Shown here in pieces: positions 3,728-12,109 of a stretch of DNA of 12,109 bases. The notes beneath the pieces were generated by a model that did not search any database, was not told the DNA's origin, and saw only the letters and a list, made by a program, of their open reading frames with translations. The position numbers and the translations under genes were made by a program. Source of the DNA: a virus (Duplodnaviria > Heunggongvirae > Uroviricota > Caudoviricetes); IMG/VR virus record IMGVR_UViG_2531839476_000007, positions 1 to 12,109 of that record; one strand, written 5' to 3'. Position 1 is the first letter of the stretch. Every line of letters starts with the position of its first letter.

Positions 3728-4102
3728 ATGATGACACTAAAACATTTTCTTGACCGCCCATTATGGGCGGCAGCCGCAGGCTATGACTTTAATTATATGG
3801 ATTGCATGTCTTATACCGCCAATGCATACGACCATTCCTTCAGTCTGCTGTTTAATTCTTTAAGAATATTGCCGCAAACAGAAGTTGGAGAGCTTCATTT
3901 ATGGCTATTGGGCTTTATCGCGGCTGTCGTTGGTATTGCTGTATGGCCTTTTATTTTCTGGCTGGTGGCTGTTGTAGTGTGGGTTAAGTGCAAGACATAC
4001 CGGAAAAAGTATTTCTTAGGTGATGGAATGACTGATATTGCCAAAATGAACATTGAAGAATGGACTAAGGAATGTGAAAAGAAATGGCGCAAAAAGAAAT
4101 GA
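3728..4102 (+). CDS. hypothetical membrane protein, 124 aa
   Basis: ORF-track ORF. Long hydrophobic segment LWLLGFIAAVVGIAVWPFIFWLVAVVVWV followed by a basic C-terminus (…KKWRKKK). The 3' end overlaps the next gene. Confidence 0.55.
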   Translation: MMTLKHFLDRPLWAAAAGYDFNYMDCMSYTANAYDHSFSLLFNSLRILPQTEVGELHLWLLGFIAAVVGIAVWPFIFWLVAVVVWVKCKTYRKKYFLGDGMTDIAKMNIEEWTKECEKKWRKKK

Positions 4103-5337: not shown

Positions 5338-5369
5338 GTGCCTGATCCACTAACTCCTGGAGGTTTCTT

Positions 5370-5621
5370 GTGTCAGATCGAAATATAGCAGCTAAAAGCC
5401 AGGAAGAGCGAGACAAGGTGAACGTAGACCTTGCCGCCAGCGGCGTTGCTTACAAAGAACGGCTGAATATACCTGTGATTGCAGAGCAGGTGGCCCGTGA
5501 GCAACCGGAAAACCTGCGCGCCTATTTCATGGAACGGCTACGGCACTACCGGCAGTTAAGCCTCCAGTTGCCAAAAGGGAGCGATCCGGTGTATCAGAAC
5601 GAGGATGCACCAAAAAAATAA
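5370..5621 (+). CDS. hot: Hot, homolog of the DNA polymerase III theta subunit (HolE), 83 aa
   Basis: GTG 5370 is preceded by GGAGG (5359-5363). The core [43 protein letters not shown] matches my recollection of E. coli theta ([43 protein letters not shown]). Position before humD fits the P1 gene order. Confidence 0.8.
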
Positions 5622-7019: not shown

Positions 7020-8063
7020 GTGAAAGCCATAATTACTCCCTTTGTACAGAAAGAGCTTGGCCTCGCCACGTTCAAAGTGGATCAGGAGGTCAGAAAGCTG
7101 GTGGAGGCTGGCCGTAAATTTATTATGGAGCCGGTGCCGCGTGAGTTAATCGAGCACATGGAAGACGGCCTCGTTGTTACCGAGCAAACCATGGCAACAA
7201 ATGAGGCGTTGCAGCCGTTTTTTAACAGCGATGAACTGTTTCGCCGTATTGGTGGAATTGACTCGCTGGTGGCGTGGTTGCGTAGGAAAGAGGGTCAATG
7301 CCAGGCCGCAGATCGTAGTTGGTGTGACAACCATATTGTCCACGCTGAACGAGACAATAGCGCGGTGTTGTTGTGCTGGCATCACGATAACCATTACCGG
7401 ATGCGTGGTTTTAATGAGCTGAAAGAAACGCTGCACAATAATCGCGTTAACTGGATACTGGATGTCGCCCGTCAGGAAATGGGCCTTTCAAATAGCCATG
7501 ATTTAAGTATTCAGGAGCTGTGCTGGTGGGCTTTCATGCGCAACATGATGCACCTGATGCCGGAAGAAGTCTGCCGCATATCAATAAATAAGATGAAGGC
7601 TACTCCGCAGGATAGCGGACCTCTGAAAGAGGCGGATATTCGCCCGTATGACGATCGCGCTACAGCATATGTTCAGATGATGGAAGAACGCGCCGCGCCG
7701 ATGCGTGCAAAAGTATGCCCTGTGGATGTTGACTCCGACCCAGGTATGGCGCATTTCAAAATACCAAAACTTCAATCGCTAAAATTGCCCGAGTACATGG
7801 ACTTTGTGGCTTCCCGTCCATGCTGTGGCTGTGGAGCTGCGGGAGCTGGCGCTCACATTACGCCTTATATCGTTCGTCATAGTCGATTATGCGCGCATGA
7901 CATTTATGCTATTCCTCTGTGCCAGTCATGCCAGCGTGATATTGAGCGTGACCGCGATAATTGGGAGAAGACGCACGGTAGGCTGGCGATGCATCAACGA
8001 TTGTTCTTTGATTACGCGCTTGGAGTCGGCGCTATCACAAGTCATTCGTCGAGTGTTAGATAA
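7020..8063 (+). CDS. pdcB: PdcB-like protein, 347 aa, with Cys/His-rich HNH-like motifs
   Basis: GTG 7020 preceded by AGGTG. Contains CWHHDNH and a C-terminal cluster PCCGCG…[29 protein letters not shown] resembling the HNH pattern CxxC…H…N…LCxxC. Name is by position in the P1 order. Confidence 0.65.
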
Positions 8064-8064
8064 A

Positions 8065-8107
8065 ATTGCTCTAATGTATTGCTATTTCTTTAATCGAGGG
8101 TATTATA
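8065..8107 (+). promoter_or_regulatory. C1-repressor operator-like site overlapping the -35 of a putative lpa promoter
   Basis: ATTGCTCTAATGTATTG (8065-8081) matches the recalled asymmetric C1 operator consensus ATTGCTCTAATAAATTT at 14/17, first 11 positions exact. Candidate -35 TTGCTA (8079-8084) and -10 TATTAT (8101-8106) / ATTATA (8102-8107). Confidence 0.55.
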
Positions 8108-8115
8108 TTCGACGT

Positions 8116-8139
8116 TGATTAGTTGACATGGGCTAATCA
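8116..8139. repeat. 7-bp perfect inverted repeat TGATTAG-N10-CTAATCA in the lpa leader
   Basis: TGATTAG (8116-8122) and CTAATCA (8133-8139) flank a spacer containing TTGACA (8123-8128). Sits between the putative -10 and the lpa RBS AGGTGA (8142-8147). Confidence 0.5.
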
Positions 8140-8151
8140 GTAGGTGACAGG

Positions 8152-8604
8152 ATGTTACTTAACTGGCAGGGACGCCACTTCATGGAAATAAATCACTCAC
8201 GAATAACATCGTACGAGATTGCGGATTACATGATCCGCACTAAATCTCTTCTATCAGCGAAAGAACTCGCAGCAATTCTTGAAAAGGAATACCCGCATCT
8301 GGATGTCGATAAGCGCGATGTTTATCTGCGCTTAAAGGCTATCGCTGTGTCTAAGTATTCGTCTGTTTTGATTGATGACAGTACACGCCCACGTAGATTT
8401 CAGATCCACTCTCTGAATCCTGAATTCTTTCGCCGCAGCCGCGCTCCGCGCCGGTTTGATGAAAAACTCCAGAACGAACTCTATATGACGCAGGACGAAA
8501 AGGAACGCCGGGAGCACCAGCCTTGGGTGATGGCGCGTCAACTTTTCAATAAGGTGGTCCGTCAGCACCGTCATTACGGTAATGCCACATCCGCACGTAT
8601 CTGA
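8152..8604 (+). CDS. lpa: Lpa-like late promoter activator (P1 gene 10), 150 aa
   Basis: ORF-track ORF; ATG 8152 with RBS AGGTGA (alternative ATG 8182, MEINHSRI…). Assigned from its position immediately upstream of pacA and the C1-operator-like site upstream. I do not recall the Lpa sequence itself. Confidence 0.6.
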   Translation: MLLNWQGRHFMEINHSRITSYEIADYMIRTKSLLSAKELAAILEKEYPHLDVDKRDVYLRLKAIAVSKYSSVLIDDSTRPRRFQIHSLNPEFFRRSRAPRRFDEKLQNELYMTQDEKERREHQPWVMARQLFNKVVRQHRHYGNATSARI

Positions 8605-8614
8605 TTGATTGCTT

Positions 8615-8633
8615 GCCCGTTCCGGGCCTTTTG
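8615..8633 (+). terminator. weak intrinsic terminator-like hairpin between lpa and pacA
   Basis: GCCCG-TTC-CGGGC (8615-8627) followed by CTTTTG (8628-8633). Short 5-bp GC stem and only four U's, so at best a partial terminator. Confidence 0.3.
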
Positions 8634-8690
8634 ACATGTGACTTTCGTTACCCTCGCGTCAAAAAGAGTTTTATACGAAAGGAAGCATAA

Positions 8691-9884: not shown

Positions 9885-11368
9885 TGGCCAGAAGTTGCGT
9901 AACGGACCCACGTTGGCGCGAGCTTGTGGCGCTATATCGTTATGACTGGATTGCGGCCGCTGATGTGTTGTTTGGGAAGACACCAACCTGGCAGCAGGAT
10001 GAGATCATTGAGTCCACGCAGCAGGACGGCAGTTGGACAAGTGTGACCTCCGGCCATGGTACTGGTAAATCGGATATGACGAGTATCATTGCAATACTCT
10101 TCATCATGTTTTTCCCCGGCGCTCGCGTCATTCTGGTCGCTAACAAAAGACAGCAAGTCCTTGATGGTATTTTCAAATACATAAAGAGCAATTGGGCTAC
10201 TGCTGTTAGCAGATTCCCGTGGTTGTCGAAGTATTTCATTCTTACAGAAACGTCTTTTTTTGAGGTGACTGGCAAGGGTGTTTGGACAATATTGATAAAG
10301 TCCTGTCGCCCCGGGAATGAGGAGGCGTTGGCTGGTGAACACGCCGATCATCTCTTGTATATCATCGACGAAGCGTCGGGTGTGAGTGATAAAGCATTCA
10401 GTGTGATAACAGGTGCGCTGACCGGTAAGGATAACCGTATTCTGCTTCTTTCCCAGCCTACGCGACCTTCAGGCTATTTCTACGATTCACACCACAGACT
10501 AGCTATTCGCCCGGGAAATCCTGATGGATTGTTTACTGCGATAATACTGAATAGTGAAGAATCTCCGCTTGTAGATGCAAAATTTATACGAGCAAAACTT
10601 GCGGAGTATGGCGGTCGTGATAACCCCATGTACATGATCAAAGTACGTGGTGAATTTCCCAAATCTCAAGATGGCTTTCTTCTTGGTCGTGATGAGGTTG
10701 AGCGGGCGACGCGGCGAAAGGTCAAGATTGCCAAAGGATGGGGCTGGGTTGCATGTGTTGACGTTGCTGGTGGCACAGGACGAGATAAGTCCGTTATTAA
10801 TATCATGATGGTGTCCGGCCAGCGAAATAAACGCCGTGTAATCAACTATCGTATGCTGGAATACACAGACGTTACAGAAACGCAGTTAGCCGCCAAGATT
10901 TTCGCAGAATGTAACCCAGAACGGTTCCCGAACATAACCATAGCTATTGATGGCGATGGCTTGGGGAAATCGACGGCTGATCTAATGTACGAACGCTATG
11001 GCATTACCGTCCAGCGTATCCGCTGGGGTAAAAAGATGCACAGCCGTGAAGATAAAAGCCTTTATTTCGATATGCGCGCTTTCGCGAATATTCAGGCGGC
11101 AGAAGCTGTAAAATCAGGGCGTATGAGGCTTGATAAGGGGGCTGCGACTATAGAGGAAGCATCAAAGATACCGGTAGGGATAAATTCCGCAGGTCAATGG
11201 AAGGTGATGTCAAAGGAAGATATGAAGAAAAAACTCAACCTGCACTCACCGGACCATTGGGATACATATTGTTTCGCTATGTTGGCGAACTATGTTCCCC
11301 AGGATGAAGTGCTTAGCGTCGAAGACGAAGCGCAGGTTGATGAAGCTCTGGCATGGCTTAATGAATAA
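9884..11368 (+). CDS. pacB: PacB, large terminase (ATPase/nuclease) subunit, 494 aa
   Basis: ATG 9884 coupled to the pacA stop. Walker A GHGTGKS and Walker-B-like [11 protein letters not shown] are present. Size and position match P1 pacB. Confidence 0.88.
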
Positions 11369-11418: not shown

Positions 11419-12109
11419 TTACTGGCTGCCCCTTCTTAGTTTTACGGCTGCGCGTAACTGATGCGGCTGATTTGACCTTTTTCTCTTCGCGAGTGATGGC
11501 AATTGTTTTTTTACATTTTCAATATCTGCCAGGCGATATATTTTTGCCTGCGGCCAGCGGTCGCAGATGATCGGTTCTATAGAGTCATAAAGGCTAAATT
11601 TTGCTTTCTCGAATTCACCGTTGATGATGATTCCATCACGGAGAGTTTCATCGCAGATAAACACACCACACAGCGGCACATGGTAACTAACTGATTTACC
11701 ATCATTGTAGTTAGGGCTACTGGAAATGTAATGGACGCGCAGCATTGTTTCGCTAAAGCCGTGTACACGCATACGGAATTTTTCATCCTCCGGGTACTGC
11801 TTCATTAGCTCTTTTGTTGCTTCCAGGTTCTCTATGTATTTCGCACTGTGCTCATTGATCCCCGCGCTTTTCTGGATGCGAATGTCCTTATCAATCAGAT
11901 GAATAATGCGGCCAGCGGTCATGTTGACGCTGTTCACAGCTTCTGTCTGATAAGTTGTAACCTTACGCACACCGCGAAGGATGTTAGGCACTGGATATAA
12001 AATAGTCTTTGGGATATTGAGGTCTGGGTACTGTTCCAGTTCTCGCGCCATTAAAGTCCATTTATCAATTTCAGCCTGAATGCTGTCCGTTTCTTTGAAC
12101 GGCAGAACG
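11419..12109 (-). CDS. c1: c1 immunity repressor, 3' portion only; the 5' end lies beyond the window
   Basis: The - strand frame is open from the window edge (…VLPFKETDSIQAEIDKWTLMARELEQ…) to the stop at 11419-11421, so the track's 210-aa ORF is an N-terminally truncated view. Convergent with pacB, as in the P1 map. Sequence recognition is partial. Confidence 0.65.
   Translation of the reverse strand, partial: VLPFKETDSIQAEIDKWTLMARELEQYPDLNIPKTILYPVPNILRGVRKVTTYQTEAVNSVNMTAGRIIHLIDKDIRIQKSAGINEHSAKYIENLEATKELMKQYPEDEKFRMRVHGFSETMLRVHYISSSPNYNDGKSVSYHVPLCGVFICDETLRDGIIINGEFEKAKFSLYDSIEPIICDRWPQAKIYRLADIENVKKQLPSLAKRKRSNQPHQLRAAVKLRRGSQ

Follow-up and report, generated by a model that had tools for sequence, protein, structure and literature searches.

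The window analyzed here is the whole stretch of viral DNA under study, 12,109 nucleotides long. A 1-kb query around its lpa site (pdcB, lpa, pacA) is 99.6% identical to Salmonella phage SJ46 and 98.4% identical to P1, and the genes of the window run in the order pmg-like genes, humD, phd, doc, pdcB, lpa, pacA, pacB and c1. This identity and gene order assign the window to a P1-like (Punavirus) phage or plasmid prophage. P1 has the same neighbours, with pdcB upstream and lpa, then pacA, pacB and c1 downstream. The window is an SJ46-like variant of the P1 family: over the lpa region (8059-8159) its sole difference from P1 is one base at 8111, upstream of the transcription start, and the regulatory DNA itself is otherwise that of P1. 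The segment 8065-8151 is the early promoter-operator of lpa together with the first 38 nt of its mRNA. The features of the locus are the following.

7020-8063, + strand: pdcB (DUF968/HNH-like), from the list of open reading frames and the annotation of P1, SJ46 and plasmids
8065-8081, + strand: C1 operator Op94/Olpa, monovalent and asymmetric, 17 bp, ATTGCTCTAATGTATTG; the same 17-mer is found in M95666, AF234172 and AF503408
8079-8084, + strand: -35 hexamer TTGCTA of the sigma-70 promoter Pr94/Plpa, from a promoter scan and the P1 annotation
8101-8106, + strand: -10 hexamer TATTAT of Plpa, from a promoter scan and the P1 annotation
8114, + strand: transcription start, a G, mapped base for base from the M95666 entry 'Transcriptional initiation site of Pr94, G at 4030'
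8116-8122, + strand: 5' arm of the hairpin called HP1, TGATTAG, mRNA +3 to +9, from a repeat scan and folding
8123-8132, + strand: loop of HP1, TTGACATGGG, from RNAfold
8133-8139, + strand: 3' arm of HP1, CTAATCA, mRNA +20 to +26, from a repeat scan and folding
8141-8161, + strand: predicted hairpin HP2, UAGGUGACA-GGA-UGUUACUUA (stem 8141-8149/8153-8161), from single-sequence folds and the RNAalifold consensus
8152-8604, + strand: lpa (gene 10, late promoter activator), 150 aa as annotated in P1, from tblastn and annotation
8164-8177, + strand: predicted hairpin HP3, UGGC-AGGGAC-GCCA (stem 8164-8167/8174-8177), from single-sequence folds and the RNAalifold consensus
11419-12109, - strand: c1 repressor gene, truncated by the end of the window, from its translation compared with P1 C1

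The stop codon of pdcB lies 1 nt upstream of the operator. The original prediction had placed a C1-operator-like site at 8065-8081, with 14 of 17 positions matching the consensus, and this proved exact: ATTGCTCTAATGTATTG departs from the C1 consensus ATTGCTCTAATAAATTT at positions 12, 13 and 17. A consensus scan allowing up to 3 mismatches returned two matches in the window, against 0.06 expected from shuffles. On a weight matrix made from 17 annotated P1 operators, with the lpa operator left out, Olpa scores 16.5 bits, which is the top of the window and the low end of the training range (15.7-28.7). Furthermore, the site is already annotated in this phage family. M95666 (P1 gene 10, phd, doc) has the identical 17 bases at 3981-3997 as 'c1 repressor binding site, regulation of gene 10 expression', and additionally annotates the -35, the -10, the start, the RBS and the gene 10 CDS; AF234172 (P1) lists 89904-89920 as 'monovalent C1-controlled operator Olpa; former Op94' on 'sigma 70 promoter Plpa; former P94'; and the P7 record AF503408 gives the same 17-mer as 'Op(lpa)'. 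Control of Lpa by C1 is described, and the consensus operator stated, in PMC8546580. Judged from the shared sequence, it is almost certain that 8065-8081 is the known C1 operator Op94/Olpa. The link between late-gene activator and immunity repressor that had been proposed from the sequence was already established by these annotations and by the literature. Operator and promoter are the known Op94/Pr94 of P1, and this half of the finding adds nothing new; it re-finds the link by which C1 holds the late-gene activator off.

Olpa belongs to the same asymmetric 17-bp family as Oc4/Op51, Odmt/Op68 and OpmgT/Op88, with the invariant core GCTCTAAT, and these operators share its geometry, their 3' end lying at or reaching into the -35. 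It is among the weakest matches of the P1 operators (16.5 bits, against 19.5-28.7 for most others), and the bases of its 3' third (GTATTG) are imposed by the -35 TTGCTA. The weak match fits the reported need of Olpa for Bof/Lxc for full repression, and Lxc/Bof presumably acts as a co-repressor that assists C1 at this operator. The original work on Op94/Pr94, including the contribution of Bof/Lxc, is reportedly that of Lehnherr et al. in J Bacteriol in 1992. Operator positions 1-11 and 14-17 are kept in loci whose Lpa is just 65-71% identical, and the genome of Cronobacter phage JK004 (Lpa 65-67% identical) contains 16 consensus C1 sites, including one in the equivalent position ahead of lpa. 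In the window the cognate repressor is encoded on the same element as its lpa operator: the C1 of the window equals P1 C1 from residue 46 to about 243, with a single exception at the c1.100 site of the P1 record, and an apparent 1-nt deletion around 11504, close to the 3' end of c1, frameshifts the C-terminal tail.

The last 3 bp of the operator overlap the -35 TTGCTA, which is invariant across the six leader types described below. The predicted overlap with a candidate -35 was borne out, since this hexamer (8079-8084) is paired with the -10 at 8101-8106 (TTGCTA-16-TATTAT, a 16-nt spacer, 9/12 in the promoter scan), and in all relatives the -10 reads TATTAT or TATCAT. The start at G8114 is carried over to this window from the P1 GenBank annotation, the sole source for its position. 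C1 bound at 8065-8081 would cover part of the Plpa -35 and repress lpa, as shown for P1, whose sequence here is identical. With the operator over the -35, Lpa and the whole late-gene programme are expected to be off in lysogens and on when C1 is inactivated. A promoter-like arrangement on the minus strand, ATGTCA-16-TATAAT (8129 to 8102, 10/12), was treated as a chance match because its -35 is not kept in JK004-type leaders.

Downstream of the promoter, the inverted repeat TGATTAG-N10-CTAATCA was found exactly where the prediction had it, between the -10 and the SD/ATG (8142-8154), with arms 100% complementary and TTGACA in the loop, at 8123-8128. RNAfold additionally pairs U8123 with G8132 and U8124 with G8131, which leaves a loop of 6 nt. 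Counted from the P1 start (G8114), the stem starts within 0-2 nt, at 8115 or 8116, which leaves 1-2 nt unpaired; it ends at 8139-8140, 2-3 nt before the SD, with neither SD nor start codon inside it. The HP1 sequence of the window folds with -9.3 kcal/mol (z about -3.4 to -3.5; as good a fold in 0/200 and 1/500 shuffles). The repeat taken alone is unremarkable, since the window contains 24 perfect 7-bp inverted repeats with loops of 3-15 nt (9.6 +/- 3.6 in shuffles), and it becomes significant only by its position and by comparative evidence. The loop TTGACA was also considered as a -35 and rejected: no -10 follows it at a distance of 16-18 nt, none of the five other leader types has it, and one P1-type locus has TTTACA instead. 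An intrinsic (Rho-independent) terminator was likewise rejected, as the HP1 stem is AU-rich and followed by GTAGGTGAC, with no U-run, and a terminator scan was negative on both strands. As for earlier descriptions, the P1 record (535 features) has no annotation between the -10 and lpa, the Rfam 15 covariance models match nothing in the lpa leader at E <= 1 (their only match in the window is a sub-threshold mir-67 elsewhere), and a literature search whose scope was the sources other than Lehnherr et al. 1992 and Lobocka et al. 2004 returned no description of an lpa leader hairpin.

For comparison, lpa loci were gathered from phage, plasmid, viral-contig and metagenome collections. Besides the P1 type these comprise five diverged lineages, namely Cronobacter phage JK004, two viral contigs (L098 and L101), a Salmonella Newport plasmid and an S. 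arizonae plasmid, with Lpa 65-71% identical where measured. The stem arms of HP1 in these leaders are as follows.

P1 type: TGATTAG/CTAATCA
JK004: TTGGTTGGG/CTCAACCAA
L101: TTGGTTAACC/GGTTAACCAA
S. arizonae plasmid: TGGTTAGTC/GACTAACCA
Newport plasmid: ATTAGCTGAG/CTCGACTAAT

Six sequence-distinct versions of HP1 thus occupy the same slot: the next conserved block, GTGACAGG, always follows the -10 by 36-37 nt, and in the types other than P1 the stem starts 6-8 nt past the -10. Each of the six versions folds significantly; z ranges from -3.5 to -6.1, and no more than 2/500 shuffles did as well. When columns were permuted so that relatedness was kept, the mean MFE was -3.8 +/- 1.0 kcal/mol against -12.4 kcal/mol observed, and none of 3000 permutations reached the observed value. 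In an alignment of the six hairpins from stem base to stem base (A5), 94% of the cells are paired and 7 of 9 pairs show double changes; its covariation score is 0.74, compared with 0.25 in shuffles (0/500 reach it) and at most 0.13 in slid controls, and because the boundaries of this alignment were set at the stem base, that is, using the structure, the test leans towards structure. The unbiased column-wise tests miss HP1, with no significance in the MAFFT (A2) and covariance-model-fitted (A4) alignments and no HP1 in the RNAalifold prediction on a further alignment (A3), since the stem registers differ by +/-1 column between types.

The manner in which HP1 varies is also informative. Between types it is the least conserved stretch of the region, with 32-59% identity (a range that excludes the near-duplicate JK004/L098 pair and L101) against 84-97% in its flanks, and it diverges faster than the neighbouring promoter spacer. 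Within the P1 type, by comparison, 82 loci have no segregating site in the HP1 arms, while 9 of 16 positions of the promoter spacer and 3 of the 9 bases just before the start segregate; the loop has one singleton variant, TTTACA, and its sequence is unconserved in the other types. Pattern scans of the viral and metagenome collections turned up, apart from duplicates, a single new distinct sequence, which was a variant of the P1 type. Searched with the whole-leader covariance model (R1), the P1 genome yielded no further copy, and the lpa loci of D6 type and of Pantoea type yielded no match. Comparison of these lineages shows, at the level of sequence, that selection keeps the structure of HP1 and lets its sequence change. 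HP1 is apparently an undescribed element of an ordinary kind, for which the comparative support is good.

These observations bear on what the repeat is, for which the original prediction had offered two options, a second protein-binding site or an RNA hairpin modulating lpa translation. Pure coincidence, which the abundance of perfect 7-bp repeats in the window (24, with about 10 expected) might suggest, is hardly credible, being already contradicted by six sequences that fold at one position, by the 0/3000 permutations, by the double changes in 7/9 pairs and by the absence of arm polymorphism in 82 loci. A palindromic site in double-stranded DNA at +3 to +26, bound by a second repressor or a roadblock protein, would account for a perfect 7-bp dyad just downstream of the start, the classic position of a roadblock operator. 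Yet the half-site sequences are freely replaced between types and only their complementarity is kept; G.T pairs, tolerable in + strand RNA, break the dyad symmetry of the DNA in two types; P1 and JK004 each have the palindrome just once in their genome, so that it defines no regulon; and its arms score -4.8 bits or worse on the C1 matrix. A protein-bound DNA site is accordingly disfavoured, and we consider it very improbable. The strand preference points the same way: the + strand fold is more stable than the - strand fold in all six types (for example -9.3 versus -5.0 and -15.3 versus -9.4), and wobble (G.U) pairs appear in the + sense only, with the series C-G, U.G, U-A at one position. Taken together, the wobbles, the strand stability, the unique palindrome and the lack of likeness to C1 sites favour a cis-acting + strand RNA. 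The hairpin option is thus supported by compensatory evolution in the relatives (7/9 double changes, 0/3000 permutations), and HP1 is very probably a selected + strand RNA structure.

The leader continues beyond HP1 with the two further predicted hairpins. HP2 encloses the annotated SD (AGGUGA, 8142-8147) and the annotated ATG (8152-8154), and HP3 presents a purine-rich loop, AGGGAC, upstream of a second ATG. Both are predicted in every single-sequence fold except that of L101, and in the RNAalifold consensus. In HP2, 97% of the cells are paired and the changes are one-sided and pair-preserving only (G.U to A-U, U-A to U.G), and the stem of HP3 never varies; for these reasons the two hairpins are plausible and unproven by covariation. 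The segment that contains them, 8141-8177, shows no variation in the 82 P1-type loci and keeps 84-97% identity between lineages that are about 65-70% identical in coding DNA. HP2 shares its anatomy with the leader hairpins that sequester an SD (translational operators), with the SD in its 5' arm and the AUG at the junction of loop and 3' arm; HP1 differs from them in containing neither SD nor start codon.

The annotated start codon is at odds with this conserved segment. In L098 the ATG at 8152 is replaced by AAG and in L101 by ACG, and its frame to the second ATG is interrupted by 1-nt insertions in L101 and in the S. arizonae plasmid. In the RefSeq record of SJ46 lpa begins at the second ATG (8182 in the window), as it does in the annotations of JK004 and of the Newport plasmid, and the D6 and Pantoea homologues align from about the same codon. 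No NCBIfam model matches Lpa. The loss of the first ATG or of its frame in relatives, the starts annotated in SJ46, JK004 and the Newport plasmid, and the D6 and Pantoea alignments indicate that the conserved lpa start is probably ATG 8182, giving a protein of 140 aa. The conservation of 8141-8177 is at the level of nucleic acid and not of protein. The D6 and Pantoea lpa leaders have hairpins of their own, and these are not comparable with the hairpins described here, as the predicted -10 would place the transcription start inside them.

As to the function of HP1, its anatomy excludes direct occlusion of the ribosome binding site as well as termination, because the hairpin contains no SD or start codon and no U-run follows it. 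The proposal that it modulates lpa translation finds no support in this anatomy either, as the HP1 stem ends before the SD and a separate hairpin, HP2 (8141-8161), is predicted to bury SD and ATG. The pathway of RppH and of the 5' sensor of RNase E needs a single-stranded 5' end, and hairpins appended to the 5' end stabilise mRNAs regardless of sequence (reviewed in PMC3997798). In the lpa message the inverted repeat would be transcribed as nt +3 to +26 and form a stem-loop 0-2 nt from the 5' end; such a paired end may hinder RppH and the 5'-end-dependent entry of RNase E, and in that case HP1 would stabilise lpa mRNA independently of its own sequence. A further possible effect is to prevent the 5' end from disturbing the fold of HP2 and HP3 downstream. 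The hairpins of ompA, papA and engineered bla described in the same review (PMC3997798) lie, like HP1, within 0-2 nt of the 5' end, and the dependence of ompA-type stabilisers on structure and not on sequence matches the replacement of HP1 sequence with pairing retained. HP1 differs from the ompA type in its stem, which in the P1 type is shorter and richer in AU, in belonging to a phage regulatory gene, and in being followed by two conserved hairpins. Three features define the ompA class: HP1 shares the stem beginning within a few nt of the 5' end and the independence of sequence, and the third would be a longer mRNA half-life that depends on RppH and RNase E. The P1-type stem is short and AU-rich and, if the flanking U.G pair does not form, leaves 2 nt unpaired at the 5' end, so that it may not fully block RppH. 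From a constraint on structure alone at the 5' end, we tentatively propose that HP1 is a 5'-terminal mRNA stabiliser, a role that we rank first among several candidates.

Next in this ranking comes indirect translational control through the neighbouring fold, in which HP1 would alter the access of ribosomes to the lpa start by stabilising HP2 or competing with it, or would offer its G-rich loop as a standby site. HP1 abuts HP2, which sequesters AGGUGA and AUG 8152; all six HP1 loops contain GGG or GGA; the P1-type loop UUGACAUGG resembles the HP2 5' arm GGUGACAGG and could compete for the HP2 3' arm; and in a delta-hfq host the induction of lpa transiently overshoots, a hint of post-transcriptional control (preprint 10.64898/2025.12.28.696737). 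However, the HP1 stem, ending at 8139-8140, holds no SD or start codon, the resemblance of loop to HP2 is confined to the P1 type and missing from the five others, and HP1 and HP2 stand side by side in every fold, with no alternative pairing predicted. We regard this kind of control as unlikely. Less likely still is that HP1 serves as a recognition hairpin for a co-evolving, type-specific partner (an RNA-binding protein of phage or host, or a small RNA) that would give each type its own lpa control. HP1 does look like a hypervariable cassette (32-59% identity) amid conserved flanks, outpacing the promoter spacer in its rate of change, and across 82 P1-type loci its loop is almost constant (1 singleton); both traits would fit such a partner as well as they fit a stabiliser. 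The low diversity of the P1 type, however, accounts for the constancy of the loop equally well, and compensatory evolution by itself doubles the count of substitutions in a stem. Examination of C4 RNA and of complementarity within P1 yielded no candidate partner: P1 C4 RNA forms no better a duplex with the leader than with shuffled versions of it, and the only long complementarity in P1 is a perfect one of 15 nt, inside rlfA, to 8139-8153. This match has no counterpart in JK004, which lacks rlfA, and is for that reason probably due to chance.

The stabiliser role thus remains our preferred function for HP1. For the full explanation, in which C1 represses lpa at Olpa and the message begins with a selected leader hairpin that acts as a stabiliser, we estimate a probability of roughly 55%. 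The mRNA of lpa, the master switch of P1 late development, very probably begins with a hairpin preserved as a shape. A wider and distinctly more speculative reading, which we think has less than an even chance of being correct, is that the lpa message has a dedicated, unannotated leader of three hairpins, the fast-evolving HP1 followed by the near-invariant 37-nt HP2/HP3 module (8141-8177), with the P1 start at 8152 optional or wrong and 8182 the real one; the level and timing of lpa would then be set also after initiation, through stability, translation or autoregulation by Lpa. Of the leads from this locus, the conserved module next to HP1 and the question of the start codon are the most interesting. 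A few mutants would suffice to test directly for a post-transcriptional layer in the early-to-late switch. Such a layer would bear on tools derived from P1, since Lpa-dependent reporters and P1 phagemids depend on correct expression of lpa, and it may help to interpret the mis-timing of lpa in an hfq mutant (preprint 10.64898/2025.12.28.696737).

Autoregulation by Lpa could in principle act through ATGTTACTT (8152-8160), a late-promoter-like box in the P1-type leader, and this is a low-probability lead. About 4 nt after the box, where a -10 hexamer TANNNT would be expected, the sequence is AACT-GGCAGG and contains no such hexamer; furthermore, the invariant A at position 6 of the -22 box is a G in 4 of the 6 leader types. 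Compared with the 9-bp -22 box of late promoters, AAGTGACTT, the leader box scores 11.3 bits, just below the training range of 11.9-15.1, and it ranks second in the window after the true LPpac box (8636-8644, 12.4 bits).

The Shine-Dalgarno sequence and the ATG at 8152 that are annotated for lpa, the late promoter activator gene, both lie within a nearly invariant leader module. The features of the leader and its immediate surroundings are the following.

8141-8184: leader module, nearly invariant, with two predicted hairpins
8141-8161: HP2, predicted hairpin, part of the module
8164-8177: HP3, predicted hairpin, part of the module
8152-8160: ATGTTACTT, similar to the -22 box of P1 late promoters (11.3 bits)
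8139-8153: segment complementary to part of rlfA, a P1 early gene (P1 AF234172 51778-51792, equal to L005 3778-3792)
8129-8102, minus strand: promoter-like ATGTCA-16-TATAAT, 10/12 match, directed into pdcB, the gene upstream of lpa

In relatives the equivalent of ATG 8152 is AAG, ACG, or an ATG that is not in frame with the second ATG, and in the RefSeq annotation of SJ46, in Cronobacter phage JK004 and in a Salmonella plasmid lpa begins at the equivalent of 8182. Since the upstream codon is not kept and these other annotations begin at the downstream one, the start of the 150-aa P1-style annotation may be optional or wrong.

The late-promoter-like site ATGTTACTT ranks second in the window for the -22 box, the first being the real box of LPpac, the Lpa-dependent late promoter. 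Viral contig L098 carries a perfect AAGTTACTT at the equivalent position, and position 6 of the box is G in four of the six leader types; no -10 was found downstream of the site. It may be an Lpa-related site, or else a coincidence of the HP2 stem. Within rlfA, 15 nt are exactly the reverse complement of a segment of the lpa leader (AGTAGGTGACAGGAT), a match expected about 0.005-0.01 times by chance. JK004 has neither an rlfA homologue nor a counterpart of the complement, and for this reason we consider the complementarity to be probably fortuitous. As for the minus-strand promoter-like sequence, its -10 overlaps that of the lpa promoter, and its -35, located within the loop of the 5'-terminal hairpin HP1, is unconserved among JK004-type leaders.

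More distant lpa leaders appear to represent differing solutions for lpa control. In the S. arizonae plasmid CP053320 (locus L102, 1462-1506), the upstream ATG begins an 11-codon uORF, and the TGA that closes it shares bases with the start codon of lpa (ATGA). D6-type leaders (L008 and L011, about 1465-1495) have a CCCCU/GGGGG hairpin with the Shine-Dalgarno sequence as its 3' arm, and three of four Pantoea lpa promoters (L010, L016 and, in variant form, L017, about 1480-1500) have a GGATT-ACAC-AATCC repeat immediately 5' of the TAGAAT -10.

Further features were found within lpa and downstream of it.

8220-8239: a second perfect 7-bp inverted repeat, TGCGGAT-N6-ATCCGCA, inside lpa
within 8615-8654: terminator-like hairpin GCCCG-TTC-CGGGC followed by CTTTT, directly after the lpa stop (8604)
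8636-8644: LPpac -22 box ATGTGACTT, downstream of the terminator-like hairpin
8649-8654: LPpac -10, TACCCT
10580-10596, minus strand: second C1-operator-like 17-mer of the window, TTTGCTCGTATAAATTT, inside pacB (3 mismatches, 13.2 bits)
about 11504-11505, minus strand: 1-nt deletion in c1 relative to both P1 and SJ46

JK004 has a hairpin and T-run in the equivalent place after lpa, stronger than that of the window, and lpa may form an early unit that is for the most part monocistronic. The repeat at 8220-8239 lies within the most conserved lpa segment (codons for EIADYMIR), and relatives retain 6 of its 7 pairs; coding and structural constraint cannot be separated here. The whole window holds 24 inverted repeats that have perfect 7-bp arms and a loop of 3-15 nt, against 9.6 +/- 3.6 in shuffles, a roughly 2.5-fold excess. 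Upstream of the operator, the last ~20 nt of pdcB, GCTATCACAAGTCATTCGTC (8031-8050), show 94% identity between lineages, where the background level is about 65-70%.

Elsewhere, a sub-threshold Rfam match to mir-67 (5339-5423, minus strand; 25.3 bits, where the gathering score is 53; E = 0.05) is almost certainly due to chance. The pacB 17-mer is present unchanged in P1, where it carries no operator annotation, and is probably non-functional because the operator core CTCTAAT reads CTCGTAT. The c1 deletion (AAAAAAAC-AAT versus AAAAAAACAAAT in the comparison with P1 and SJ46) could be an error of sequencing or could mean that the repressor is altered; it frameshifts the final ~40 codons, giving a shorter, different C-terminal tail.
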